Of a stretch of DNA of 64,000 nucleotides, positions 2,977 through 15,992 are shown piece by piece. The position numbers and the translations under genes were made by a program. The notes beneath the pieces are model-generated. The model searched no databases. It had not been told where the DNA came from and worked only from the letters and a program-made list of their open reading frames with translations. This DNA comes from an uncultured Lachnospiraceae bacterium. Its GTDB lineage: Bacteria; Bacillota; Clostridia; Lachnospirales; Lachnospiraceae. The stretch lies in contig ONSO01000002.1 in NCBI GenBank assembly GCA_900320485.1, forward strand, positions 1,187 to 65,186, read 5' to 3'. Every line of letters begins with the position of its first letter. The first letter of the stretch is position 1.

Positions 2977-3882
2977 CTAATTGATCTTACTTTCAAAATC
3001 TTCTGCCGCGGGCGTCGTGGCATATCCGAAATACTGCAGTGAAAGCTTCTCCAACGTTCCATCCTCATAGAGCTGCTTGATGGCTACGTCAATGTCGTCC
3101 CTAAGCTTTTTGCCCTTTTCATCCTTTGCGTAGAGATAATAGGTATTCACCGTGGGAAGAATGTCTGCCAGTGCCTCGGCGTCCAAGGTCACCTTCTTAA
3201 TTCCCTGGAATTGATATTCATCAAAATATGCGGAGATCATGGGGCCGTCATCCAAGGTGAAATCTGCGGCGCCGTCAGCAACCTGCTGATATCTCACTAC
3301 TACGGTCGCATCGGAATAGATTAGCTTGATCTGCTCATCCGGATGCTCCTCATTCCACTGCTCCAGCGCCGCAGTATCACCGCCGGAGGCTCCAACGATC
3401 ACGGAATAGCCTCTGGCCGCAGCATCATGCAGATCCTTTAAGGGTTCATCTCCCTCTCTTTGTACAAAGGCCTTATCCGTCACTTTATAGGGATAGGAGA
3501 AATAATAGGATTCTCCCCTCTGCTCGCGCCATACCCAGTTACCTACGGTTACGTCATAGAGTCCGGACAGAACGCCCGTAAGGCCGTCCGTTGCGGAAAT
3601 ATATTCCGCCTCATATTGGGGAAGGCGATCAATGGCCTCCTTAAACACCGCGTAGTCAAATCCATCCGACGTTCCGTCATCCTTTACGTAAAGATAAGGG
3701 GCGGGACCTTGGCTTACGTGTACCTTGATGGTAGTCACCTGAGCTGAACTTGCATCCCCTCCCTGGGAATTGCCTGCGGCGCTGGCCTTTGCACCGTCCT
3801 TTGCGCCGCATCCGCTCAGCGCTCCCGTAAGAAGCGCCAAGCCTAAAGTAACGGCAAACAGTTTTGTCAATTTATTTTTCAT
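2977..3882 (-). CDS. Amino-acid ABC transporter substrate-binding lipoprotein (SBP family 3)
   Basis: Lipobox LSGC; PY...DG..DGFD; DGTLEKLS..YFG C-terminus; operon context. Confidence 0.88.
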   Translation of the reverse strand: MKNKLTKLFAVTLGLALLTGALSGCGAKDGAKASAAGNSQGGDASSAQVTTIKVHVSQGPAPYLYVKDDGTSDGFDYAVFKEAIDRLPQYEAEYISATDGLTGVLSGLYDVTVGNWVWREQRGESYYFSYPYKVTDKAFVQREGDEPLKDLHDAAARGYSVIVGASGGDTAALEQWNEEHPDEQIKLIYSDATVVVRYQQVADGAADFTLDDGPMISAYFDEYQFQGIKKVTLDAEALADILPTVNTYYLYAKDEKGKKLRDDIDVAIKQLYEDGTLEKLSLQYFGYATTPAAEDFESKIN

Positions 3883-3905
3883 AATCTTTCTCTCCTCAAA
3901 TCAAT

Positions 3906-5138
3906 TTAGTTATTCTTCAAAAGTCCCTTTAAGGGATTTACGGTTACGTCAAAGTCCGGTCTGTAATTGGTCGGCTCTCTGTCCTCCCAGGAAGGAGAGT
4001 TCCAAATGGTCTTAGAGATCTCGGACTGATAATCCTCAGGGGTCTCGCCTTCTGGATGCTTTAAGAACAGGTTTTCAGGATCTGCGGAAAGCTTTGCTCT
4101 CTCGTGATCCGTCGCCCAAAGCTCCTCAAACGGGATCAGGGGCACGATTCTTTCCTCATAGCCCTTGAAGAATCCCTTTCCTCCGCCGATGCCTCTTCCC
4201 TCCCTAAAGAAGGTGTACTTCGCAAACTGAGGAATGGAATAAAGCTCTCTTACGTATCCCCAAATGTTCTTGTACTCGGTGATCCTCTTCTTCATGGGCC
4301 CAATGGACCTAAAGTATCCGGTCTCCCATCTCACCAGGGAAACGTATGCCCGGATGTCGGAATCCGTTACGTAATCGCCAAAGATAAAGCGGTTGGTCTC
4401 CAGTCTCTTATCCAGTTTCTCCAATGAATCGAAGAAATCTTCATAACCCTCATTATAAGCTTCCCATGACACGCCAAATGCCATGCGGTAATGTCCGTTG
4501 TTGATATGAGGGAAGAGCCAGTCATTAAACTCGTCGATTTCCTTTCTGTACTTTTTGGGGTACAGATCCGGCGCATCCACGGGCTGGAACTTTCTGAACT
4601 GTACCTCAATGTAGTTGGAAAGGCGGTGATAGTCGTTGTTTACGGCCTTCTTTTCCTTAACGTCTACAAAGGTCGGCGTGGTGGCGCGTCCCTTATACTC
4701 AGGATTAGCATTCTTGTAAAATTCAGAGAGGAAGTGCACGCCCGTGATGGGATCCTTGAAATCCTTCTGATCAGCAAAACCGTGACCGTACTTGTTGGTC
4801 TCGCCGGAATGGCTCGTGGTCTGATCTGCGATCACGTCCTGCAGTCCCAGAAGATCTCTTGCAATGACGGGGCGGTTAGACCAGTTGCATCCGTGCGCCC
4901 AGTAGATGGCAAACCTGTTTGCCTCCGCCTTGTGTTCTCCTTCCTTATCGCCAAAGGGAACAATGAAGGAATTGGGCTGGCGTACAAATACGCCCCTCTC
5001 GTTTGTTTCATCCTTCTGCTCGTTGGGCCTTGGTGCCAGGCCGCCTGCCTCCTGCGCAAACTTCTCTGCCAACTCATCCGTGTAATCCGTCTTAACGTTC
5101 TCTCTTTTCGTATAATCAAAAGTGCAACTTGCTGCCAT
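3906..5138 (-). CDS. Glutathionyl-hydroquinone reductase / omega-class GST (YqjG-like)
   Basis: G.FVRQ, GCNWS (equivalent of CPWA), Y.GRAT.P, LYP, INNG.Y, RFIFGD.VT.SDIR. Start reassigned to ATG 5138 after RBS AAGGAG. Confidence 0.85.
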   Translation of the reverse strand: MAASCTFDYTKRENVKTDYTDELAEKFAQEAGGLAPRPNEQKDETNERGVFVRQPNSFIVPFGDKEGEHKAEANRFAIYWAHGCNWSNRPVIARDLLGLQDVIADQTTSHSGETNKYGHGFADQKDFKDPITGVHFLSEFYKNANPEYKGRATTPTFVDVKEKKAVNNDYHRLSNYIEVQFRKFQPVDAPDLYPKKYRKEIDEFNDWLFPHINNGHYRMAFGVSWEAYNEGYEDFFDSLEKLDKRLETNRFIFGDYVTDSDIRAYVSLVRWETGYFRSIGPMKKRITEYKNIWGYVRELYSIPQFAKYTFFREGRGIGGGKGFFKGYEERIVPLIPFEELWATDHERAKLSADPENLFLKHPEGETPEDYQSEISKTIWNSPSWEDREPTNYRPDFDVTVNPLKGLLKNN

Positions 5139-5200
5139 GATCTTAATCTCCTTTTCTCTTTTTATTTTTCTTTTTCCTGCCATCCGGCGGAATTTTGGGT

Positions 5201-5236
5201 AAAAAAATAACAGCCTCACTCCCCATGAAACTGCCA
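5201..5236 (-). terminator. Intrinsic terminator (attenuator) in the leader of the GST-ABC operon
   Basis: mRNA TGGCAGTTTCA-loop-TGAGGCTGTTA (11 bp with G-U pairs) followed by T7. Confidence 0.65.
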
Positions 5237-5278
5237 CGTTTACGCATCATAAATCATGAATCCAGTTCATTGGAATCC

Positions 5279-5520: not shown

Positions 5521-6426
5521 CTACGCCTCCTTGTATTTCAGCAGCTCTTCCACGTAGGCCTTTCCATACTTTGACAACTCGCCGCCTTTTCTTGTAAGGT
5601 AACCGATCACCAAAGGATCCTCTTCCCTTAATTTCACTGACACCATGCCCTTTAACACGGCATCCTCTTCCGACAACATGCCGGAACCGACGGAATATCC
5701 GCCAAGTCTGGCAATCAGCTCCATGGTGGTCGCCCGGTCATCCGACTTGATCAGCTTAGGGAAATCATAGTCTGCCATGGCTTCCTCTTTGAGGTAAAAA
5801 TGTCCCTCTTCTCCCTGGTCAAAGGACACGCAAGGGTAGCCTCCAAGCTCTTCCAGTGAGATTTCCTTTCTGTCAGCAAATTTATGTCCCTTCCAGAAAT
5901 ACGCGTAGGTTTCCCTTTTCATCAGGGGCACAAATTCCAGCTGGTACTCCTTCAGGAGCTTTTTTAAGGGACCTTCATTGCTGCCGGAATAGGACACGAT
6001 CCCCACCTCACTCTTGAGATCCCTGACGTTTTCCAATACCTCGTGAGTCCTTGTCTCATGGATGGAGAACAGATACTGCTCCGGTTCAAACCGCCTGATC
6101 ACCTCCGCGAAAGACTTTATGGCAAAATTATAATGTTGGGTTGAAACGGAAAATCGTTCCTTTTCTTTTGCGCGGGACAGATAACGTTCCTCCAAAACCT
6201 CATACTGTCCCACCGCCTGCTTTGCATAGGTAATGAACTCCCTGCCTTCCTGCGTCAGGGTGATGCCCTTATTGGTTCTCTCAAAGATCAGTATCCCAAG
6301 CTCCTCCTCCAGCTCACGAATGCTGGCGGAAAGCGCCGGCTGGGATACGTAAAGCTTTGTCGCCGCCTCACGCATGGATGGGGAATGGGCCACGGTCAAC
6401 ACGTATTTTAATTGATTTACGTTCAT
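5521..6426 (-). CDS. LysR family regulator (CmbR/MtaR-like, sulfur amino-acid metabolism)
   Basis: AA.KLYVSQPALS.SIRELEEELG..IFERTNKG; FSVSTQHY.F motif; context. Confidence 0.92.
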   Translation of the reverse strand: MNVNQLKYVLTVAHSPSMREAATKLYVSQPALSASIRELEEELGILIFERTNKGITLTQEGREFITYAKQAVGQYEVLEERYLSRAKEKERFSVSTQHYNFAIKSFAEVIRRFEPEQYLFSIHETRTHEVLENVRDLKSEVGIVSYSGSNEGPLKKLLKEYQLEFVPLMKRETYAYFWKGHKFADRKEISLEELGGYPCVSFDQGEEGHFYLKEEAMADYDFPKLIKSDDRATTMELIARLGGYSVGSGMLSEEDAVLKGMVSVKLREEDPLVIGYLTRKGGELSKYGKAYVEELLKYKEA

Positions 6427-7610
6427 GTATTTTCCTCCAGGCTTCTCCGGATCCTTAAAAGGGCTTCCTCCAGCGTCGCACGGTTTGTCGCCAGGTTTAT
6501 GCGCTGGAATCCCGATCCCGTTTTTCCAAAAATGGCACCGTCATCCAGCCACAGCTTTGCCTTGTGAACAATGAGATCCTCTAACTCCCCGTCGCAGAGA
6601 CCCAGGCCCCGGAAATCCAGCCAGACAAGGTAAGTTCCTTCCGGTTCAATGAGCTCTACGCCCGGGAGATGATCCTTTACAAAGGATCTCAAAAATTTTA
6701 AATTCTCATAAATATATCTGCAGACGGCCTCATGCCATTCCGCACCGTGCTCATAGGCGGCCTTGCAGGCCACGACGCCAAAAGTATTTAACTGGCTGTA
6801 ACCTGCCGCCTGGATCTGCTTGCGAAACTGCCTGCGAAGGCTCTGATTGGGGATCAGGATATTTGCGATCTGCAGACCCGCAAAATTAAAGGTTTTGCTG
6901 GGAGACGTACAGGTAACGCAGTACTCCCTGATCCGCTCGTTAACGCTAAGGAGCGGCACGTGCTTATGGCCCGGATAGATAAAGTCTTCATGGATCTCAT
7001 CACTGACTACCACAACGCCGTAACGGATGCACAGGTCAGCGATGCGCTCCAGCTCTTCCCTGGTCCACACCCTGCCCACGGGATTGTGCGGACTGCAGAG
7101 CATAAACAGTTTTACGTTATATTCCCGCAGCTTTCTCTCGAAATCATCAAAGTCAATGACGTAATGGCCATTTTCCAGTACAAGGTCACTGCTGACAACA
7201 ATGCGGCCATTATCCCTTACAACCTCCGTCAGCGGATAATACACCGGTTGCTGGATGAGCACGTGATCCCCCTCTTTCGTGTAGGCTTTGACGGCAGCCG
7301 CCAGGGCAAATACCACTCCGGGCGTCTTCAGGATCCATTCCGGCTTTATTTCCAGATCGTGTCGCGTTTTCATCCAGTCGGCCAAAGCTTCAAAATAATC
7401 TTCGCGGGTCTCCGTATATCCGAAAATGCCGTGACGGGTGCGTTCCTCTATGGCATCCTGGACGTAGCTGGAGGTCTTAAAGTCCATGTCTGCCACCCAC
7501 AGCGGCAACACGTCCTCCGGCTTCCCCCGCCTTAGGGCAAAGTCCCATTTCAGGCTGTCCGTTTCCCTTCTGTCTACCACTTCGTCAAAATTCAGGTTTC
7601 GTTCGCTCAT
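6423..7610 (-). CDS. patB: MalY/PatB family PLP C-S lyase (cystathionine beta-lyase)
   Basis: PLWVADMDF, LCSPHNPVGRVW, SDEIH, SPSKTFN, EGTYLVWLDF. Confidence 0.92.
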   Translation of the reverse strand: MSERNLNFDEVVDRRETDSLKWDFALRRGKPEDVLPLWVADMDFKTSSYVQDAIEERTRHGIFGYTETREDYFEALADWMKTRHDLEIKPEWILKTPGVVFALAAAVKAYTKEGDHVLIQQPVYYPLTEVVRDNGRIVVSSDLVLENGHYVIDFDDFERKLREYNVKLFMLCSPHNPVGRVWTREELERIADLCIRYGVVVVSDEIHEDFIYPGHKHVPLLSVNERIREYCVTCTSPSKTFNFAGLQIANILIPNQSLRRQFRKQIQAAGYSQLNTFGVVACKAAYEHGAEWHEAVCRYIYENLKFLRSFVKDHLPGVELIEPEGTYLVWLDFRGLGLCDGELEDLIVHKAKLWLDDGAIFGKTGSGFQRINLATNRATLEEALLRIRRSLEENT

Positions 7611-7622
7611 CTGCTCTTCCTC

Positions 7623-9323
7623 TTATTCCTCAAATGCCTGCGCCAGGTCTGCGATCAGATCCTTTGGATCCTCAAGTCCCGCGGAAAGACGCAGAACGCA
7701 GTCCGTAATGCCATTTGCGATCCTGACCTCCTCCGGTATGTCCGCGTGGGTTTGGGTCACGGGATACGTAAGCAGCGTTTCCACGCCTCCAAGACTCTCC
7801 GCAAAGGGAATCAGTTTTGTATGCTTCAAAATATGTTTTGCCAGTTCGCTGCTCTCCACCTCAAAGGTCAGCATGGCACCAAAGCCCGTAGCCTGTCTCT
7901 TACAGATCTCATGGCTTTCCGTTCCGGGAAGTCCGGGATAATAAACCTTCTTAACCCTGGGATGGCCCTGCAGGAAGTTCGCGATGGCCTTTGCATTGGC
8001 CTGTGCCTTCTCCATGCGGACGGGCAAGGTCTTGATCCCGCGAAGGATCAGCCAGCTGTCCATGGGTGCCAGTCCGGATCCCACGGTCTTGATGAGGAAC
8101 CGCATTCTCTCAGAGATTTCCTTGGAATTTGTAACCACAAAGCCTGCCAAAGTGTCATTGTGTCCTCCAAGGAATTTCGTGCCGCTGTGAATGACCACGT
8201 CCGCCCCAAGCTCCAACGGCTTTTGGAAGTAGGGGGATAAGAAGGTATTGTCTACAATGAGTAGCAGGCCGTGCTTCTTTGCAATCCGGGCAACCTTGCG
8301 TACGTCCGTTACGTTCATCATGGGGTTAGTCGGCGTTTCGATAAAGATGGCCTTTGTGTTTTCCTGAACGTAATCTTCAAGATCCACCTGACTGCAATTC
8401 ACGTGAGAAAAGGTGATGCCGTTCTTCTCGCTGACGTTGCGGAACAGCCTGATGCTTCCGCCGTAAAGGTCTGCTTCGGTGATCAGGTGATCTCCGGGTT
8501 TAAATAGCTCCATCAGTGCCGTTATTGCAGCCATGCCGGTGGAAAATGCCAGGGCGTCAATGCCGCCCTCCAGGGATGCCACAACCTTCTCCAGCTGTGC
8601 CCTGGTAGGGTTTTGCAATCTGCCGTAGTCAAAGCCAGTACTCTTCCCAACCTCAGGATGTGCATAGGTTGCAGTCTGATAAATGGGGAAGCTGATGGCG
8701 CCGGTTACGTCAGCCTTGGGTCTTTCGTGATCACCATAAATGCATTTGGTGGAAAATCCAAATTCCGCCTTCCCGGTCTCCTCCTTTGCGGACAAGGCTT
8801 CTGCCGCCGCCTCTTCCGATACCTCCAGATACTTTTCCACAAGAACGCATACAAAATCAGGCTTAAATCCGTCAGGTCGCTTGGGCCGGGGCGGACGGTT
8901 TTTCGCATGCACGTCATATTCATTGGGGGATATGTTGGGATTGTATACGTAGCCGCACTTTTCATAGAAGCCCTGGGCCCGGTCCTGGGCGGAAATGACG
9001 ACGTGAGAGATGCCCTTTTCAGCGATCCACTTTTCCGCCTCTTCGATCATGATGCGGCCGTATCCGCTCTTTTGTTTTTCCCGGATGGTGCAGACTCTCT
9101 CGATCTTTCCAATGCCGGGTCTGGGAAATGCAATGCGCAGTCCCGCCACGGGCTTATGATCCTCAATGATCAAAACGCCGTGAAAGTCTTCCTCCCCGCC
9201 ATCCCCAAGAAACTCCGTCTCCACGGGAATGTTCTGTCCAAAACAAAAGGCATCCGTCCTTACGTAGTTGTATGCATGAAACTGCCACTTGGGCGAATCC
9301 TTTGTCACTCTGTAAATCTCCAT
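7623..9323 (-). CDS. Fusion: N-terminal GNAT acetyltransferase (ElaA/YjcF-like) + cystathionine gamma-synthase/lyase (MetB/MetI family)
   Basis: aa 1-165: KIERVC..REKQKSGYG, SAQ..A.GFYEK.GY. aa ~190-566: PIYQTATY, YGRLQNPTR, IETPTNP, VDNTF, HSGTKFLGGH, ESLGGVETL. Confidence 0.88.
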   Translation of the reverse strand: MEIYRVTKDSPKWQFHAYNYVRTDAFCFGQNIPVETEFLGDGGEEDFHGVLIIEDHKPVAGLRIAFPRPGIGKIERVCTIREKQKSGYGRIMIEEAEKWIAEKGISHVVISAQDRAQGFYEKCGYVYNPNISPNEYDVHAKNRPPRPKRPDGFKPDFVCVLVEKYLEVSEEAAAEALSAKEETGKAEFGFSTKCIYGDHERPKADVTGAISFPIYQTATYAHPEVGKSTGFDYGRLQNPTRAQLEKVVASLEGGIDALAFSTGMAAITALMELFKPGDHLITEADLYGGSIRLFRNVSEKNGITFSHVNCSQVDLEDYVQENTKAIFIETPTNPMMNVTDVRKVARIAKKHGLLLIVDNTFLSPYFQKPLELGADVVIHSGTKFLGGHNDTLAGFVVTNSKEISERMRFLIKTVGSGLAPMDSWLILRGIKTLPVRMEKAQANAKAIANFLQGHPRVKKVYYPGLPGTESHEICKRQATGFGAMLTFEVESSELAKHILKHTKLIPFAESLGGVETLLTYPVTQTHADIPEEVRIANGITDCVLRLSAGLEDPKDLIADLAQAFEE

Positions 9324-9339
9324 TGCTCTCTCCTTCCTT

Positions 9340-10275
9340 CTACTCCCATTTGATCAGAGCGCGTTCTGCCTTTCCCACGGCCAGATCGATCAAGGTCGTG
9401 ATCAGTCCGACGGTGACAATGCCTGCCAGAACGCATCTGTAATCCGCAAAGCTTTTGTATTTTTCGATAAAGTATCCGATTCCTAAGTTGATGCCCAGCA
9501 TTTCTGCGCCGGACAGGCACATAAAGGCCCCCCGCAGGCTCTTGGAAATGCTTTTGATAATGCCGGGCAGGCAGTAGGGAAAGATGACCTTTCCAAGCAT
9601 GCCAAGGGTTCCGACTCCCATGGTCCTTGCCGCTTCGATGATCTGACGGTCGATCTGCCCCACTCTCACCACGGTTCCCTGAAAGGTAGGCCAGAATACC
9701 GCAAAGAAAATTACGGCGATGGCTGCCTGACGGAAGGTGGAAAAGATCATGATGAGATACGCCGAAAACATCAGGGGCGGGATCAGGGTGATCACGTTGG
9801 AAATGGGAAGAAGCACTTCCCGGATCCTGGGGATCCAGCCGGCCAACAGCCCCAGCAGCGTTCCCAATATGGCTGCCAGCAAAAAGCCCCAAAACAGGAG
9901 CTGCAGGGAACCCCAGACGTCCTTTAGGATCTCGGGTGTTTTCTCCACAAATACGTGAAACAATCCTTCCGGTGAAGGTAACAAAAGGTCATTGTGGATC
10001 CATCCCAGCTTATATGCCACTTCCCACAGAATGAAAAATCCAAACACCGTCACTGCCAGATCGTTGGCACTTTTTTTCTTGGAAGCAAACAGGCATGGCA
10101 CGTAAATGACGTAGGCGCCAAGAATGACAACAATATAGGCGGCGCTGTCATAATAGACCTTGTGGGGCGTAAAATAGGGAAACGTCAGGGTTAATGCGAC
10201 GTTGACGGCCATCAGGACGGTTGCGACCGCAAATTCAAGATACGCCCCTTTGTCCAGTTGAAAAAATCGCTTCAT
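9340..10275 (-). CDS. ABC transporter permease (SsuC/TauC/NitT family)
   Basis: LLPSP, EAARTMG, AEML...GIGY; hydrophobic. Confidence 0.88.
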   Translation of the reverse strand: MKRFFQLDKGAYLEFAVATVLMAVNVALTLTFPYFTPHKVYYDSAAYIVVILGAYVIYVPCLFASKKKSANDLAVTVFGFFILWEVAYKLGWIHNDLLLPSPEGLFHVFVEKTPEILKDVWGSLQLLFWGFLLAAILGTLLGLLAGWIPRIREVLLPISNVITLIPPLMFSAYLIMIFSTFRQAAIAVIFFAVFWPTFQGTVVRVGQIDRQIIEAARTMGVGTLGMLGKVIFPYCLPGIIKSISKSLRGAFMCLSGAEMLGINLGIGYFIEKYKSFADYRCVLAGIVTVGLITTLIDLAVGKAERALIKWE

Positions 10276-11090
10276 AGTGCAACCTCCGCGTCGATCTCTT
10301 CCTCAACCTGATCATAGAAGGCCGAGATCAACTGTCTGTGCAATTTTTCGTATTCCTCCGTCCCTGCCAGTTCCTCCCGGACTCTTGGATGAGGAAGGCG
10401 GACCTTCAGGATGCTCCGGATCCTTCCGGGTTCCATGACAACGATCCTGTCGGCAAGAAGTATGGCCTCATCAACGTCGTGCGTGATAAAGACCACGGTT
10501 TTTTTATGCTCCGCGCAAAGCTTGGATACAAGCTCCTGAAGCTCTAAACGAAGCCTCGGGTCAATGGCTCCAAAGGGCTCATCCATGAGCAGAACGTCAG
10601 ATTCCAGTGCGAGAGCCCTTGCCACGGCCACGCGCTGCTTCATGCCGCCGGAGAGCTGGCTGGGATATCGGTCCTTGGCCCCCGAGAGCCCAACGCTTTC
10701 CACGTACGACTCTGCCAGTTCCATGCGCTGCGCCCGCCCAAGCTTTCTCCCGCTCTGCCTGATTCCAAAAAGCACGTTGCCCTTTACCGTGAGCCATGGA
10801 AAAAGTGAGTATTGCTGGAACACGACGGCACGGTCAGTGCCGGGGCCTTTGACGTGACGGCCATCCAGCAAAATCTCTCCGGCGCTTGGCTTATGGAGTC
10901 CTGCAAGAAGGCTGAGAAGCGTTGATTTCCCGCATCCGGATGCCCCTAATATGCAGATGAATTCCCCTTCCCGTATCTTAAGGTCTACGCTCCGCAATGC
11001 CGCAAATTTCGTCTTCTTGTCCTCATAGTCAAAGGACACGTTCCTTACTTCGATCTTATATGCAGCTTGTGTTTCCTGATGCTCACTCAT
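10272..11090 (-). CDS. ABC transporter ATP-binding protein (SsuB/TauB family)
   Basis: GASGCGKS, VFQQYSLFPWLTV, LSGGMKQR, MDEPFGA. Confidence 0.92.
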   Translation of the reverse strand: MSEHQETQAAYKIEVRNVSFDYEDKKTKFAALRSVDLKIREGEFICILGASGCGKSTLLSLLAGLHKPSAGEILLDGRHVKGPGTDRAVVFQQYSLFPWLTVKGNVLFGIRQSGRKLGRAQRMELAESYVESVGLSGAKDRYPSQLSGGMKQRVAVARALALESDVLLMDEPFGAIDPRLRLELQELVSKLCAEHKKTVVFITHDVDEAILLADRIVVMEPGRIRSILKVRLPHPRVREELAGTEEYEKLHRQLISAFYDQVEEEIDAEVAL

Positions 11091-11111
11091 GCTTACTACT
11101 CCCTTTTTTGT

Positions 11112-12044
11112 TTATCCTTCTTCGTAAAGTGGCGTGGACAGGTATCTTTCTCCGCTGTCCGGAAGAATGACTGCAATGACCTTCCCTTTGTATTCCGGGC
11201 GCTTTGCCAGCTTCTCCGCCGCCCAAAGTGCGGCGCCGGAGGAAATGCCTGCAAGAACGCCTTCCGTTTTGGCAAGCCTGTTGGCTGCATCCAATGCCTC
11301 CTCCGTAGTCACGGCAATTACGTCATCATACACCTCCGTGTCCAGGGTGTAGGGAATAAATCCCGCGCCAAGTCCCTGCAGCTTATGGGAACCTGCACGC
11401 CCTTCCGATAATACGGGGGAATCCTTAGGTTCCACCGCAACCACCTGAATGCCCGGCTGTACTTCCTTTAAGTATCTGCCTGCCCCGGACAAGGTTCCGC
11501 CCGTCCCGACGCCTGCCACAAATACGTCCACGTGATGATCGCTGTCCTTCCAGATCTCGGGTCCCGTGGTCTCATAATGTGCCTTGGGATTGGACGAATT
11601 GGTAAACTGCCCCGGAATAAAACCATGGGGAATGGTTTCTGCCAATTCCTTCGCCTTTGCTATGGCGGCTTTCATGCCTCCCTTTCCCTCCGTGAGCACA
11701 AGCTCCGCGCCATAGGCCTTAAGCACGTTGCGTCTCTCCTCGCTCATGGTATCCGGCATGACTATGATGACGCGATATCCCTTTGATGCCGCAACGGCTG
11801 CAAGCCCGATCCCCGTATTGCCGCTGGTAGGTTCAATGATCACGGAATCCTTCTTCAAAAGGCCTTTCTCTTCCGCATCCCTGATCATGTACAGGGCGAT
11901 CCTGTCCTTAATGCTGCCTGCAGGATTATACCATTCCAGCTTTGCCAATATTTCCGCATGCAAGCCGTATTTTTTTTGGTATCTGCCAAGCCGAAGCAGT
12001 GGCGTACCACCGATCAGTTCCGATATTGTTTCAACTCGCTTCAC
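11112..12044 (-). CDS. cysK: Cysteine synthase A (O-acetylserine sulfhydrylase)
   Basis: [48 protein letters not shown]. Likely start GTG 12044 after RBS GGGGAGG (track start 12080). Confidence 0.93.
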
Positions 12045-12070
12045 GTCTGCCTCCCCGTCTTCCATGGATC

Positions 12071-13006
12071 TTATGCCCATGCGAAAAGATCACTGGACAA
12101 ATATTTATTTCCTCCGTCAGGAAATAGTACCACAATGTTTTTCCCTTCATTCTCAGGCCGTCTGCCCAGTTCCACGGCCGCCCATAGTGCCGCACCTGCG
12201 CTGATGCCGATCAAGAGGCCCTCCTTTTTGGGGCATAGCCTTGCATAGGAATAGGCATTCTCGTCGGTACACAAAAGAATCTCCTTATAGAGCGAAAGAT
12301 CCGTAATGGGACAGATGGCTCCGCCTCCAATGCCTTGGATCTTATGAGGTCCGGGCTCCCCGCCGTTTAACACGGGGCATCCGGCAGGCTCCACGCCATA
12401 GATCTCCACGTCCGGATTTTGTTCCTTCAGATATCTTCCTATGCCGCCGGAGGTGCCGCTGGTCCCCACCGCAGCCACAAATATGTCTACCTGCCCCTGC
12501 ATGGCCTTCCAGATCTCAGGCCCCGTGGTCAGGTAATGGGTCTCCGGATGATGAGGGTTTTCTCCCTGTGCAGGGCGAAATGCCCCGGGTATGGACTCGA
12601 CAAGCTCCACCGCTTTTTTGCCGCCTCCCCCAAAACCATTCGCCTTTGGCGTCAACACCACCTCGGCGCCATAAGCTTTCAGGATCTTGATCTTTTCCTT
12701 ACTTGCTCCTTCGGCCATGCAGAGAATGGCGGGGTGATCTTTCACCGCACAGGCCAGTGCCACGCCTATCCCAGTGTTACCGGAGCTTCCCTCCACAACG
12801 GTTCCGCCCGGCTTAAGCTTCCCCTCTTTTTCCGCGACCTCGATCATGTGAAGCGCCGCCCGGTCCTTGACGCTTCCGCCCGGATTAAAGCTTTCCACCT
12901 TTGCATATAGCCTTGCCTTCGACCGGGTTTCCTTTTCGATCTGATTTAAGTGGAGGATGGGCGTATTGCCCACCAGCTCCAAAACGTTATCATAGATCCG
13001 CCCCAT
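12071..13006 (-). CDS. Diverged cysteine synthase family PLP enzyme (second CysK paralogue)
   Basis: [29 protein letters not shown]. Several canonical CysK residues are altered. Confidence 0.88.
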
Positions 13007-13018
13007 TTTCAAACCTCT

Positions 13019-14254
13019 CTAATTTGCTTCATCAAACTGTTTCTGAAGATCCTTGTAAAATGCATTGTCGGGATTCGCTTCGATCAGCTGCCTTAATGCC
13101 TGCTGATAAGCCGAAACGTCAACGTTCTGCGTAATGTCATAGCTTCCAAAATCTACTGCATTGCCGGAAAACACGCCGGAATTATATGCAGCCTTGACGT
13201 ATTTCTGAATTCCTGCGGTATTGGGATCCACGGCAAATTTCGTAACGCCGCCGTACAGGTAGGTCTCCACGTAATCCTCTTCCTTGCCGGAATACTCTGC
13301 TACCGTCTTAACAACGTCCTTCTTAATGCTCTCATCCGTTTCCCCTTGCTTATAGTACTCAAAGGCGCGGATCCTTGCGGTTTCGTATGCCACAAAGGAA
13401 TCATACTTTTCAGTCAGGCAACTTTTGGAGGTCACTTCACGGCAGCATACGTAATCCGGAGAAAGATCTCCCGCAGCGGCTACCACCTCAAGATCATAGG
13501 CATCTGCATAAAGAAGCGCAAACTCCATGGGAAGGAAACCTAATTCCACTTCGCCCTTCTGTACGGCCTGAGCGGTTGCCGTCTGGTCTGCATAATAGGA
13601 AATGTGTCCCGTGGATTCATTTTCCACTGCCTCGATCACGTCTGCGCTTACGCCATTGTCCAAAAGATACTGTCTTGTAATGATCCAGGCAGCCTCATTG
13701 CGGGCAAAACCAAGCTTAGCTTCCGTTACTGCCTCAAGATTCAAAAGAGTGCCGTTCCCCTTAAACTTTTCCGCGTTTCCTTTCTTTGAGATCACCGCGC
13801 CGCCTTCAACGGCCGTTCCGGCAACAAAGGCAAGATCATATCCCGCGCCGATGGCCTGAACGTCTGCCACAAAACCTGCCGTCAGAATATCCAGTGCGCC
13901 GTTTCCCTCATTGATGGCGGTCAGGGCGTCATTTCCTCCGACGGCCACGGGGTTCACGGTAAGTCCCTCCGCTTCAAAATAGCCTTTTTTCAGCGCCAGA
14001 ATGTCAATGGTCACGCGAATGTTTCCTGCCGGATAGGACACGTTCAGGGGAACAAGGGCTTTTGTCTCCGATCCGCCGACGTTTGATGCATTTGCGTTGC
14101 TTGACGCAGCAGTGCTTACGTTTTCCACGCTGCCTGAATTTGCTCCGCTTTCACTTGAAGCAATGCTTCCCTGCACGCCACATCCGGCCAACGTACCCGC
14201 TGCCAGCAGGACTCCTGCCAATAAGTAATTCCATCTTCTTCCAAACTTTTTCAT
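13019..14254 (-). CDS. ABC substrate-binding lipoprotein (SsuA/NMT1-like)
   Basis: Lipobox LAGC, Ser/Asn-rich linker, A..KGYFEAEGL.V motif; same operon as ssuBC-like genes. Confidence 0.82.
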   Translation of the reverse strand: MKKFGRRWNYLLAGVLLAAGTLAGCGVQGSIASSESGANSGSVENVSTAASSNANASNVGGSETKALVPLNVSYPAGNIRVTIDILALKKGYFEAEGLTVNPVAVGGNDALTAINEGNGALDILTAGFVADVQAIGAGYDLAFVAGTAVEGGAVISKKGNAEKFKGNGTLLNLEAVTEAKLGFARNEAAWIITRQYLLDNGVSADVIEAVENESTGHISYYADQTATAQAVQKGEVELGFLPMEFALLYADAYDLEVVAAAGDLSPDYVCCREVTSKSCLTEKYDSFVAYETARIRAFEYYKQGETDESIKKDVVKTVAEYSGKEEDYVETYLYGGVTKFAVDPNTAGIQKYVKAAYNSGVFSGNAVDFGSYDITQNVDVSAYQQALRQLIEANPDNAFYKDLQKQFDEAN

Positions 14255-14280
14255 AATCTCTCTCCTCAACCTTTCTTTTT

Positions 14281-15426
14281 TTAATTTGATCGTGTCATTA
14301 TTCGCAGCGTTACCTGAGCAGCCCTAGTGAGCTCAGGCACCGTTGTATACTCATCCGTGCCGTGGCAATTCTCCATGGCACATGCCAGGACAATGGTATC
14401 TATGCCATTGGCATTCAGCCTGTTGGCATCACTTCCGCCATAGGTAGTGATGCACTGCGCCTTCCTTTCCGGAAGAACCTCTTGCACTGCTTTCAGAAAC
14501 CTTTGTACGACGCTCTTTTCTTCCCTTAGTCCATAGGAGCGAATGTGTTCTTCCACGTGAAGCTGAACGCTTCCTCCGTATTTTTTTGCCGCCTTTTCAA
14601 AGATCTTCCGGATCAGATCCGCCTCGCAAAGGGCTTTCTCATGATCCAGGCATCGGATCTCTCCTTCCAACAGGATTTCCTCCGGGACAACGTTCCGGCC
14701 ACTCCCGCCGCGGATGGTTCCAAAATTCACGGTCAGATCCTCTGCGACCCGTCCCGTCCTTATGTTGGCAAGGGCGTCCGCCGCTATGCTCAGGGCATTG
14801 ATCCCTTTTTCCGGGGCAAACCCTGCATGAGCTGCCTTGCCCCGTATGTCCGCTTTTAAGGAAAGAATGGAGGGGGCTGCCGTTGCCGCCGTTCCCACGG
14901 GGCCGTCCAGATCAAGTACGTAGCCCTCCTTCGCCTTCAGCCTGTCATATTCCACAAATCTGCTTCCCGAACAATAGGGTTCCTCCGCCACCGTGATCAG
15001 AATTTCCAGATCCGGATGGGATAAGCCTTCTTCCCTGATCACCGTCAGGGCTTCAAGGATGGAGGCAAGTCCTGATACGTCATCCGCCCCCAGCACCGTC
15101 GTTCCGTCCGAGGTGATCCTTCCGTCCTCCTGCAAAATGGCTTTCTTTCCCATTCCCGGACTGACCGTGTCAAGGTGTGCCGAAAACAGGATGGGAGCAC
15201 CCGGAAGATCTCCCTTGAGATAAGCATAAAGGTTGGATCCCGTTTTTTCTCTGGAAGGATCCTCCTCAAGGAGTTTTTGTCTCGCGTTATCTTCCTCCAC
15301 CTGAAGGCCAAGGCTCTGAAGTTTTTCTTTTACGTAGGCGCTGATCTCCCGCTCCTGAAAGGACGGGGCGTCAAAAGAAGTCAGCCTCACAAATTCATGA
15401 ACCAATCTTTGGGTATCTACGCTCAT
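14281..15426 (-). CDS. M20 family metallo-hydrolase (peptidase T-like, YqjE type)
   Basis: SAHLDTV, LGADD.SG, TVAEE, GKAAHAG..PEKGI, GGSDAN, H...E. Confidence 0.9.
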   Translation of the reverse strand: MSVDTQRLVHEFVRLTSFDAPSFQEREISAYVKEKLQSLGLQVEEDNARQKLLEEDPSREKTGSNLYAYLKGDLPGAPILFSAHLDTVSPGMGKKAILQEDGRITSDGTTVLGADDVSGLASILEALTVIREEGLSHPDLEILITVAEEPYCSGSRFVEYDRLKAKEGYVLDLDGPVGTAATAAPSILSLKADIRGKAAHAGFAPEKGINALSIAADALANIRTGRVAEDLTVNFGTIRGGSGRNVVPEEILLEGEIRCLDHEKALCEADLIRKIFEKAAKKYGGSVQLHVEEHIRSYGLREEKSVVQRFLKAVQEVLPERKAQCITTYGGSDANRLNANGIDTIVLACAMENCHGTDEYTTVPELTRAAQVTLRIMTRSN

Positions 15427-15476
15427 ATGCATTCTCCTTCATAATCCTTTAATCAAGCTCGGCAACGAGTTCCCGA

Positions 15477-15668
15477 GTGTCGCGGCGTTCGTCGAATGCG
15501 ACACGCTTTCGCGTGGCCTCCGCTTGGTACCGGGCTCTTGCTCATGCAAGCATGGCTCGCGCCCGGTGTCGCGGCGTTCGTCGAATGCGACACGCTTTCG
15601 CGTGGTCTCCGCTTGGTACCGGGCTCTTGCTCATGCAAGCATGGCTCGCGCCCGGTACCAGGCGGAGT
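15477..15668. repeat. Tandem duplication of an 89-bp GC-rich multi-hairpin (REP-like) unit
   Basis: Copies start at 15477 and 15566 and differ by about one base. Internal stems GTGTCGC/GCGACAC and CTCCGCTTGGTACCGGGC/GCCCGGTACCAGGCGGAG. Confidence 0.85.
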
Positions 15669-15696
15669 CCTCCCGCATTCTCCTCACTGCTCGCGC

Positions 15697-15721
15697 AAAA
15701 AAAGGAGCCTGTGTAGGCTCC
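15697..15721 (-). terminator. Intrinsic terminator (attenuator) in the leader of the cysteine operon
   Basis: mRNA GGAGCCT-ACAC-AGGCTCC-T7. Confidence 0.85.
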
Positions 15722-15746
15722 CGGGCAAATGGCACGCAACGTTTCT

Positions 15747-15872
15747 CTAGCTTAGCGTTGTATCAGGACGCGCGGACATGCGTTCGAACGCCCCAGCCAC
15801 TTTGTATGCCCGGGATTTCTGCATTCGACAACACATTCCTGATTTCCATCCGTAATTCCAAGCAAGAAACAT
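15747..15872 (-). CDS. Leader peptide, 41 aa, with Met-Cys-Cys (MFLAWNYGWKSGMCCRMQKSRAYKVAGAFERMSARPDTTLS)
   Basis: Hand translation; strong RBS AAAGGAGGT; tandem TGT TGT at 15828-15833; stop ~25 nt before the terminator. Confidence 0.75.
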   Translation of the reverse strand: MFLAWNYGWKSGMCCRMQKSRAYKVAGAFERMSARPDTTLS

Positions 15873-15904
15873 TTCCGTACCTCCTTTTTCTTTGTGATAG
15901 GCAT

Positions 15905-15933
15905 ATATTATCATTCATTTCCTACTTTGTCAA
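15905..15933 (-). promoter_or_regulatory. Sigma-A type promoter of the cysteine operon
   Basis: TTGACA-17 bp-TAATAT with extended -10 TGn. Confidence 0.7.
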
Positions 15934-15992
15934 TAGGTTTAATAGCAATTATAGGAAAATTATTTTAAAACTTGCGCCCGGCAGCAATGCAC

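Follow-up and report, generated by a model that had tools for sequence, protein, structure and literature searches.

A probable ribosome-dependent attenuator with Cys-Cys-Arg-Met control codons heads a sulfur amino acid gene cluster in an uncultured Lachnospiraceae bacterium

The window analysed here, a stretch of 64,000 nucleotides from an uncultured Lachnospiraceae bacterium, carries on its minus strand a leader which precedes nine closely spaced genes and which is probably a ribosome-dependent transcription attenuator sensing the supply of cysteine and methionine (a rough probability of 0.7 is assigned to this reading). The argument starts from the sequence, its conservation and covariation, the codon bias and the gene context. 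Judged from the sequences of its relatives, the element is real and conserved, and it recurs widely in gut and rumen Clostridia, comprising several clostridial families.

The leader starts with a sigma-70-type promoter (TTGACA-17-TAATAT, 15905..15933, minus strand; 10 of 12 matches, with a TG before the -10 box), whose layout was also found at 57 operator-anchored sites. It is followed on the same strand by the Shine-Dalgarno (SD) sequence AAAGGAGGT (15879..15887), the best-scoring one downstream of the operator described below, and by a leader ORF of 41 codons (15747..15872). Within this ORF, Met13-Cys14-Cys15-Arg16(CGA)-Met17 (15822..15836, with the Cys codons at 15833-15828) are regarded as the control codons. 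The strand TCCCGGGCA (15815-15807) starts exactly 12 nt past the Cys codons and is complementary to 15727-15719, while AAGTGGC (15802-15796) is complementary to GCCATTT (15733-15727). An intrinsic terminator of -12.9 kcal/mol (15697..15722, minus strand) comprises an 8-pair stem (15722-15703), a 4-nt loop and a U7 tract (15703-15697), which lies about 170 nt from the start codon. The promoter, the SD sequence, the ORF, the Cys pair, the complementary strands and the terminator had all been described in an earlier note on this DNA, and each was found base for base on the minus strand. By chance, 0.8 promoter-like and 1.2 terminator-like sites are expected in 1.2 kb, so that a lone match of each is uninformative; it is the conservation and covariation in relatives that place the arrangement far beyond chance. 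The leader RNA of the window folds better than 200 of 200 shuffles (z -4.3). A profile search gave no NCBIfam or Pfam match for the leader ORF, and the window showed no match to the T-box (RF00230), SAM-I (RF00162) or any other Rfam model.

The nine genes downstream (5521..15432, minus strand) are separated by gaps of at most 21 nt or overlap, and this spacing suggests that they are co-transcribed. They encode a PepT-like peptidase, a lipoprotein solute-binding protein (NMT1 match weak and below the cut-off), two cysteine synthases, an ABC ATPase, an ABC permease, a GNAT domain fused to a Cys/Met PLP enzyme, a PatB C-S lyase and a LysR regulator, which is the last gene (5521-6426). The previous description as a nine-gene cysteine operon is correct in the number of genes, but the content is the supply of cysteine and methionine together with a peptidase, an ABC transporter and a LysR regulator rather than cysteine only.

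The antiterminator consists of three helices on the minus strand. The 5' strand of helix a (15807..15815) pairs with 15727-15719, with 95.7% of cells paired and two-sided changes in 7 of 10 pairs, and the 5' strand of helix b (15796..15802) pairs with 15733-15728 (88.1% paired, two-sided changes in 3 of 4 pairs). Helix c, which was absent from the earlier note, lies inside the antiterminator loop (15765..15794; 15794-15788 with 15771-15765) and showed 80-88% pairing and two-sided changes in 5 of 6 pairs. The last 4 nt (15722-15719) of the antiterminator 3' strands (15719..15733) also form the base of the terminator. In the window copy, the overlap of antiterminator and terminator is restricted to these 4 nt, whereas in most relatives the terminator takes most of the strand; very short overlaps were also observed in a few relatives (L297 and L358).

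A terminator finder applied to 102 leaders called a terminator in 62 and none in 38, which comprise a sister class plus some leaders that the finder missed, while 2 were of insufficient length. Pairing between the leader window 9 nt past CGA and the terminator 5' arm reaches -12 kcal/mol or better in 57 of the 62 terminator-bearing leaders, compared to at most 4 of 62 leaders for control windows further upstream. Three of the 62 were dropped from the covariation alignment because their called terminator lies outside +85..+125, leaving 59 sequences. In this alignment, 90.2% of the cells of the three-helix antiterminator are paired and 15 of 20 pairs showed two-sided changes. Shuffles gave 7.4 pairs, with 0 of 500 reaching 15, and slid versions were paired in at most 51.5% of cells, a comparison which favours the real structure because it was derived from the same 59 sequences. 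Together with the pairing in 57 of 62 leaders, this covariation bears out the earlier proposal of an antiterminator overlapping the terminator. The distance from the Arg codon to the antiterminator 3' strand amounts to 90-117 nt (5th to 95th percentile).

The folding of the free RNA also gave a protector hairpin, formed by the Cys/Arg codons and the antiterminator 5' strand. It was rejected as a conserved element, because its inner stem showed no covariation beyond shuffles (183-340 of 500 shuffles reach it), deletion of the codon strand left the pairing of the antiterminator strand unchanged (0.69 either way) and the relay test was weak (0.30 versus 0.24-0.26).

This genome contains three leaders of this kind, namely the window copy, one before metY, which we take to encode an O-acetylhomoserine sulfhydrylase, and one before a presumed methionine-type ABC transporter, both labels being recognised from sequence. 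A search by DNA similarity alone yields relatives in only 4 of 61 genomes. A pattern in which Cys-Cys/Trp-CGA-AUG and the antiterminator strand were fixed matched at least 120 stretches of species-representative genomes, of which 80 judged by title came mostly from Lachnospiraceae, Oscillospiraceae/Ruminococcaceae, Acutalibacteraceae, Saccharofermentans and unplaced Clostridia; 9 of 121 listed rows were removed as chance matches due to the lack of a good SD sequence and of the upstream motif. Since such a set cannot test the conservation of what it fixed, leader-blind sets were built.

The first of these was anchored on metY, for which about 160 matches were found in 154 of 201 family genomes. 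From these, 59 upstream regions were taken (the 30 best and 29 further down the list), and 5 regions anchored on the operator palindrome described below were added, giving 64. An SD-led small ORF with in-frame CGA-AUG was found in 22 of the 64 regions, one of them being a chance ORF (21 real), compared to 8 of 1729 long ORFs of this genome, among them its 3 real leaders. The second set came from scanning metagenomes for the upstream palindrome together with CGAATG, irrespective of Cys codons, reading frame and antiterminator, which yielded at least 119 stretches; pooled with 15 genome matches, it comprised 134 matches, of which 90 among those listed were non-redundant. In 88 of these 90 listed matches, the best SD-led ORF contains CGA-AUG as in-frame codons. 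An alignment of the upstream regions of relatives, which had been suggested as a check, thus speaks for the element, with the ORF kept in frame in these 88 and the stems covarying in 15 of 20 pairs. Among the same 88 listed leaders, Cys occurs in codons -3 to -1 in 65 and in codons -3 to +5 in 78, while 10 have no Cys in codons -3 to +5; Cys-free leaders occur before metY. In 401 genomes drawn across the class, the operator-plus-CGAATG pattern matched in 12, at least one of them by chance, which indicates that the family is patchy outside a few families. One complete leader with operator and metY (L080) lies on a contig titled Prevotella, which reflects either misbinning or a transfer out of Clostridia. 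Another record (L053) comprises two tandem copies of the leader start with N bases between them and is probably an assembly artefact.

Among the 62 leaders with a terminator, a set assembled without selection for Cys, codons -4 to -1 are Cys in 112 of 248 cases (45%) and Met in 64 of 248 (26%), compared to 9 of 620 (1.5%) and 23 of 620 (3.7%) in codons further upstream. Due to this enrichment, Met is a candidate control codon besides Cys. The assumption that the leader senses cysteine only agrees with the enriched Cys codons but is incomplete, as Met is enriched beside them and CGA-AUG is more constant than the Cys pair. The Cys and Met counts showed no clear difference among metY, cysK-like and lipoprotein downstream genes, only 4 cysK-like cases being classed.

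The near-invariant feature of the family is the in-frame CGA-AUG (Arg-Met), with Arg located at codon 14-17 in 137 of 151 leaders. CGA was not selected for in a set of 130 metY- or operator-anchored regions, which hold 33 small ORFs with Arg-Met at codon 9-24; 29 of these ORFs use CGA, and the four others resemble chance ORFs. Six more ORFs have at least two Cys codons without Arg-Met at codon 9-24, and three of these resemble real leaders. CGA is the rarest Arg codon of this genome (4.9% of Arg codons), and its background share is 5.0% before Met and 7.5% before Cys. Elsewhere in 198 non-redundant leaders, Arg is encoded by CGA at 84 of 121 positions followed by Cys/Met and at 26 of 371 positions followed by other codons, a comparison in which kin are counted as independent and to which a small hairpin near the stop may contribute. 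RNA pairing at CGA-AUG was considered as the reason for its near-invariance. The best duplex reached -8.0 kcal/mol compared to -6.5 kcal/mol for shuffled sequences, 67 of 198 leaders were better by 2 kcal/mol and a literal partner was present in 118 of 198; as it is present only in part, this pairing is insufficient as the full reason. Two in-frame CGA-AUG pairs were observed in the leaders L317, L323, L253 and L362.

The effect of the ribosome position was calculated by blocking 26 nt around each codon in 57 leaders, with equilibrium folding of the finished transcript. The mean terminator probability was 0.47 for the ribosome-free RNA; with a ribosome, it amounted to 0.34 for A sites at -1 and at CGA (position 0), 0.69 at +1, 0.88-0.92 at +2 to +9, 0.39 at +16 and 0.56 at the stop codon. 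The fold thus switches sharply between A site 0 and +2, while the antiterminator returns further on and at the stop. According to these values, the 'on' zone stops exactly where the control codons do, which is a requirement of attenuation. In contrast to a simple trp-like scheme, the 'off' zone is short, and termination is not enforced by a ribosome at the stop codon. The earlier suggestion that a stalled ribosome leaves the antiterminator free agrees with the model, in which the Cys codons of the family would sit at such a position. Its counterpart, that a ribosome running on melts the antiterminator, applies to A sites +2 to +9 past CGA, but the antiterminator often wins further on and at the stop. 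Since it also often wins in the ribosome-free state, equilibrium folding cannot explain the shut-off without a timing assumption; a conserved protector hairpin would have removed this difficulty.

For the finished transcript of the window copy with free upstream RNA, the terminator won at every ribosome position (0.96-0.97), which can be explained by the overlap of only 4 nt. A decision state was therefore modelled for this copy, in which the last three terminator bases are hidden, as they would be inside the polymerase. With free upstream RNA, the antiterminator reached 0.72-0.78 for an A site on Met13 or Cys14 and 0.25-0.27 for one on Cys15 or CGA, and it did not exceed 0.02 in the ribosome-free state or at any position from +1 on. 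When the RNA behind the ribosome was excluded, it amounted to 0.96 through CGA and 0 from +2.

We infer translation, termination, the signal, its timing and the repressor from these data, and the attenuator would operate as follows. As long as a ribosome is stalled on the Met-Cys-Cys-Arg(CGA) codons, the antiterminator would be able to form and the polymerase would continue into the operon. With plentiful charged tRNA-Cys and tRNA-Met, the ribosome would pass CGA-AUG onto the antiterminator 5' strand and would cover it at about the time when the polymerase makes the terminator, so that transcription stops. The leader would act as a timing device, in which a ribosome trailing the polymerase covers the 5' strand as the terminator emerges, and the near-fixed run-up to the Arg codon (14-17) and the near-fixed 90-117 nt to the 3' strand likely set this timing. 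In B. subtilis, and possibly in many other bacteria, the polymerase is reported to move faster than the ribosomes (review PMC7858274). As a slow codon, CGA likely prolongs the time spent by the ribosome at the last 'on' position or sensitises the next Met/Cys codon; CGA was reported as slow in a his-leader assay in Salmonella (PMC4046918).

The choice of CGA as the Arg codon is not accounted for by simple starvation. In an alternative reading, the CGA codon itself would be the main sensor and S-adenosylmethionine (SAM) the signal, with the Cys and Met codons as added sensors: low SAM would result in under-methylation of G37 in tRNA-Arg(ICG) by TrmD and in a stall at CGA, the weakest codon of this tRNA. 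The Arg tRNAs of this genome carry the anticodons ACG, CCG, CCT and TCT (assembly 86% complete). A tRNA pattern with the anticodon UCG, which could miss atypical tRNAs, matched in 0 of 61 family genomes, compared to 34 of 61 for the ACG control, and 34 of 35 ACG tRNA matches showed G37. As no UCG tRNA was matched and ACG is common, CGA is likely read by inosine wobble (ACG read as ICG). TrmD uses SAM and acts on tRNAs with G36-G37, the ICG tRNA of E. coli has A37, and a TrmD-family gene is present in this genome. SAM as the signal would further agree with the use of CGA in 29 of the 33 unselected Arg-Met small ORFs against a background of 5%, with the Cys-free leaders before metY, and with the ribosome model, in which the antiterminator peaks when the A site holds CGA and this codon is the last fully 'on' position. 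For E. coli, a loss of m1G37 is reported to cause A-site stalls at the codons of the affected tRNAs and to de-repress the leu attenuator, but the same report describes CGA pausing as not altered by TrmD loss (PMC8384417). Moreover, a fall of m1G37 under methionine limitation in these bacteria is an assumption, and this reading leaves unexplained both the fixed AUG after CGA and the use of CGA for other Arg codons before Cys/Met (84 of 121 versus 26 of 371). We consider CGA as the main sensor unlikely, and a leader acting as a codon-level sensor of methyl-donor status via inosine wobble and a TrmD-methylated G37 tRNA rather doubtful. If the latter were true, thousands of genes in gut and rumen Clostridia could be SAM-controlled through tRNA methylation, which would replace the S-box, and the Cys and Met codons would be extra inputs to a distance-based timer suited to uncoupled transcription.

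2-Thiocytidine restricts the reading of CGA. It was rejected as the reason for this codon, since a stall under sulfur plenty at the 'on' position would have the wrong polarity. Besides the Arg tRNAs, the genome encodes tRNA-Leu(AAG), tRNA-Pro(AGG) and a called tRNA-Ile(TAT) (contigs C110, C208 and C254); to our knowledge, A34 tRNAs are unusual in bacteria apart from Arg(ACG).

The calculated folds could also be read with the opposite polarity. With an ample supply of a sulfur metabolite, a nascent peptide ending in Arg-Met would then arrest the ribosome; stopped on the antiterminator 5' strand, the ribosome would lead to termination, and antitermination would be the default. This would match the strong preference for the terminator only at A site +2 to +9, the often antiterminated untranslated state and the near-fixed distance of Arg-Met from the start codon. 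It would also match the sister class, which has no terminator, comprises Cys after Arg-Met or not at all, and keeps the motif R-x-N-F/Y-R-x-G-R-M with synonymous codon changes, several of its leaders having a stop directly after Arg-Met. In the terminator class, however, the residues ahead of Cys-Cys-Arg-Met showed no conservation apart from Met/Cys-Arg-Met, the runs of Cys/Met codons immediately 5' of the switch boundary are those expected for starvation sensing, and a peptide signal would not require the codon CGA. Arrest under sulfur plenty is thus an improbable explanation for the window leader.

For the sister class itself, an arrest peptide or a translational attenuator is a candidate mechanism. 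Members upstream of metY are L180, L223-L226, L229, L159, L252, L276, L344 and L372, four of them without Cys, and two leaders (L237 and L198) combine the sister-class peptide with a terminator. Sequestration of the SD sequence was clear in L159, L379 and L384 and absent in others, and folding of 31 terminator-less leaders gave a mean SD access of 0.53 without ribosome and 0.67 with ribosome.

Very unlikely is a real family with a weakened window copy which mostly terminates and leaves the operon mainly to the Rrf2-type operator, as the 4-nt overlap compared to most relatives, the terminator winning at equilibrium on the full transcript and a 246-nt element inserted just downstream are set against helices and control codons which are all intact and match the family pattern, the very short overlaps in L297 and L358, shared bases located in the lowest part of the terminator stem, whose formation is needed for release, and a decision-state model which does switch.

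The preferred reading of a cysteine- and methionine-sensing attenuator is complemented by a site upstream of the leader. The earlier note had described the leader features correctly but missed an imperfect palindrome, CCTATT-N5-AGTAGG, which lies over the -35 box (15921..15937, minus strand) and is likely the operator of an Rrf2-family repressor. Such a repressor at the -35 box would likely add a second control at the level of initiation. With up to 2 mismatches, the palindrome has 4 matches in this genome, 3 of them before leaders of this family. With one mismatch allowed, it was found in 50 of 121 family genomes, a number to be read against a reversed control pattern which also matches often. 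The 71 palindrome sites, chance matches included, lie largely before genes for cysteine synthase, metY, cysteine desulfurase, uptake and Rrf2 proteins, most of these labels being presumptive ones recognised from sequence. This genome has only one Rrf2 gene above the cut-off (L386); it and a cysteine synthase-like gene point in divergent directions, and the stretch between the two contains a related palindrome. The Rrf2 protein passed the Rrf2 superfamily with 120 bits (cut-off 73) and stayed below the equivalog cut-offs for CymR (106 of 195) and IscR (105 of 208). Since some metY leaders have no palindrome, operator and attenuator are separable.

Other types of sulfur regulation were also observed in this genome. 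Eight T-box matches were found, all on other contigs, one of them before a presumed cysE-like gene, and a single SAM-I element lies elsewhere in front of what we take to be a metK-like gene. Of two genes presumed from their sequences to be serine acetyltransferase-like, one follows the palindrome without a leader (C242:21251) and the other a T-box (C206:18344-18615). Upstream of the promoter of several metY genes without Rrf2-type site (L133, L135, L137, L141 and L142), there is a different, AT-rich inverted motif, TTATC...GATAA, which in two cases directly follows a gene whose end resembles that of the LysR gene of the window; this motif possibly marks a second regulon.

Compared to known systems, the window leader resembles trpL, hisL and leuL of E. 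coli and Salmonella in its SD-led short ORF, in control codons just 5' of the antiterminator strand, in an antiterminator overlapping an intrinsic terminator and in biosynthesis and uptake genes downstream (classical mechanism: bioRxiv 10.1101/834739, PMC9413887). It differs in its specificity for Cys and Met, the invariant rare CGA-AUG pair, a stop mostly 20-27 codons past Arg instead of beside the control codons, and a three-helix antiterminator of about 100 nt without a supported protector hairpin. The trp promoter also carries a repressor site.

The statement that Cys-rich leaders are known mainly from actinobacteria is in agreement with the mycobacterial cases, but Cys-Cys leaders with terminators have also been predicted in Rhodobacterales (PMC8632094). 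Like the window leader, the latter (uORFC-8-2) is a predicted attenuator with two adjacent Cys codons, usually codons 14 and 15, and with a terminator ending in a U tract. As far as its description in that source extends, it occurs only before cysS and in one alphaproteobacterial order, a location other than that of the window leader, UGC dominates there whereas UGU dominates here, and neither Met codons nor CGA-AUG are mentioned. The mycobacterial polycysteine leaderless sORFs ('Cys ribulon'), first predicted in PMC1262725 and reporter-tested according to bioRxiv 10.1101/834739, likewise control cysteine-related operons by Cys codons in a leader ORF. However, they are leaderless, carry a C-terminal Cys run and act translationally via hiding of the SD sequence without a terminator, while the window leader is SD-led with an internal Cys pair and an intrinsic terminator and thus falls outside the mycobacterial sORF definition; the 'Cys ribulon' resembles the terminator-less sister class more than the window copy.

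Within the Bacillota, a leader-peptide attenuator paired with a repressor is reported for ilv-leu of S. aureus (PMC5794164), and His attenuators were predicted in the B. cereus group, Eubacteriales and Erysipelotrichales (PMC9413887, PMC2965389). These share phylum and logic with the window leader, and S. aureus likewise combines repressor and attenuator, but other amino acids are concerned, and the His cases are given for 17 genomes, compared to several clostridial families here. For C. perfringens, control of sulfur genes by Cys T-box and S-box is described (PMC2940859). Those elements likewise use premature termination, with Cys or SAM as the signal, to control cysK and related genes; in contrast to the window leader, they need no translated ORF, and the window gave no Rfam match. 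No description of the element was found in Rfam, Pfam, NCBIfam and the literature searched, while large catalogues of motifs or small proteins could hold it unnamed, and no methionine-sensing leader attenuator was found in that literature.

An attenuator of this kind would explain how metY, methionine/cystine-type uptake and cysteine synthase are controlled without T-boxes or S-boxes in many abundant gut and rumen Clostridia, and the controlled genes govern sulfide use and sulfur amino acid synthesis. The CGA-AUG pair, the fixed spacings and the two output types with and without terminator would offer a handle on how a ribosome can steer termination when the polymerase may run ahead, and the element bears on whether rare-codon context or tRNA methylation tunes a sensor.

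Some further features were observed in the window outside the switch. A palindrome-rich insertion of 246 nt (15429..15684) separates the terminator from the first gene. It is flanked by a 10-nt direct repeat containing the SD sequence of this gene, holds two 89-nt tandem copies, is single copy in this assembly and is missing from the metagenome copy L299, which otherwise aligns gap-free. Its appearance is that of a REP-like or MITE-like element which inserted recently and duplicated the SD sequence of the gene. A different tandem repeat was observed at a comparable place in L006. In the fusion gene of the operon (7623-9323, minus strand), the GNAT domain is located N-terminally of a cystathionine gamma-synthase/lyase-type enzyme, and the protein possibly makes or uses an O-acetylated precursor. 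Beyond the operon, a separate promoter-like site (5452-5424) is followed by a glutathione S-transferase-like gene and an amino-acid-binding lipoprotein gene (2977-5237, minus strand), which are possibly further sulfur-related genes.
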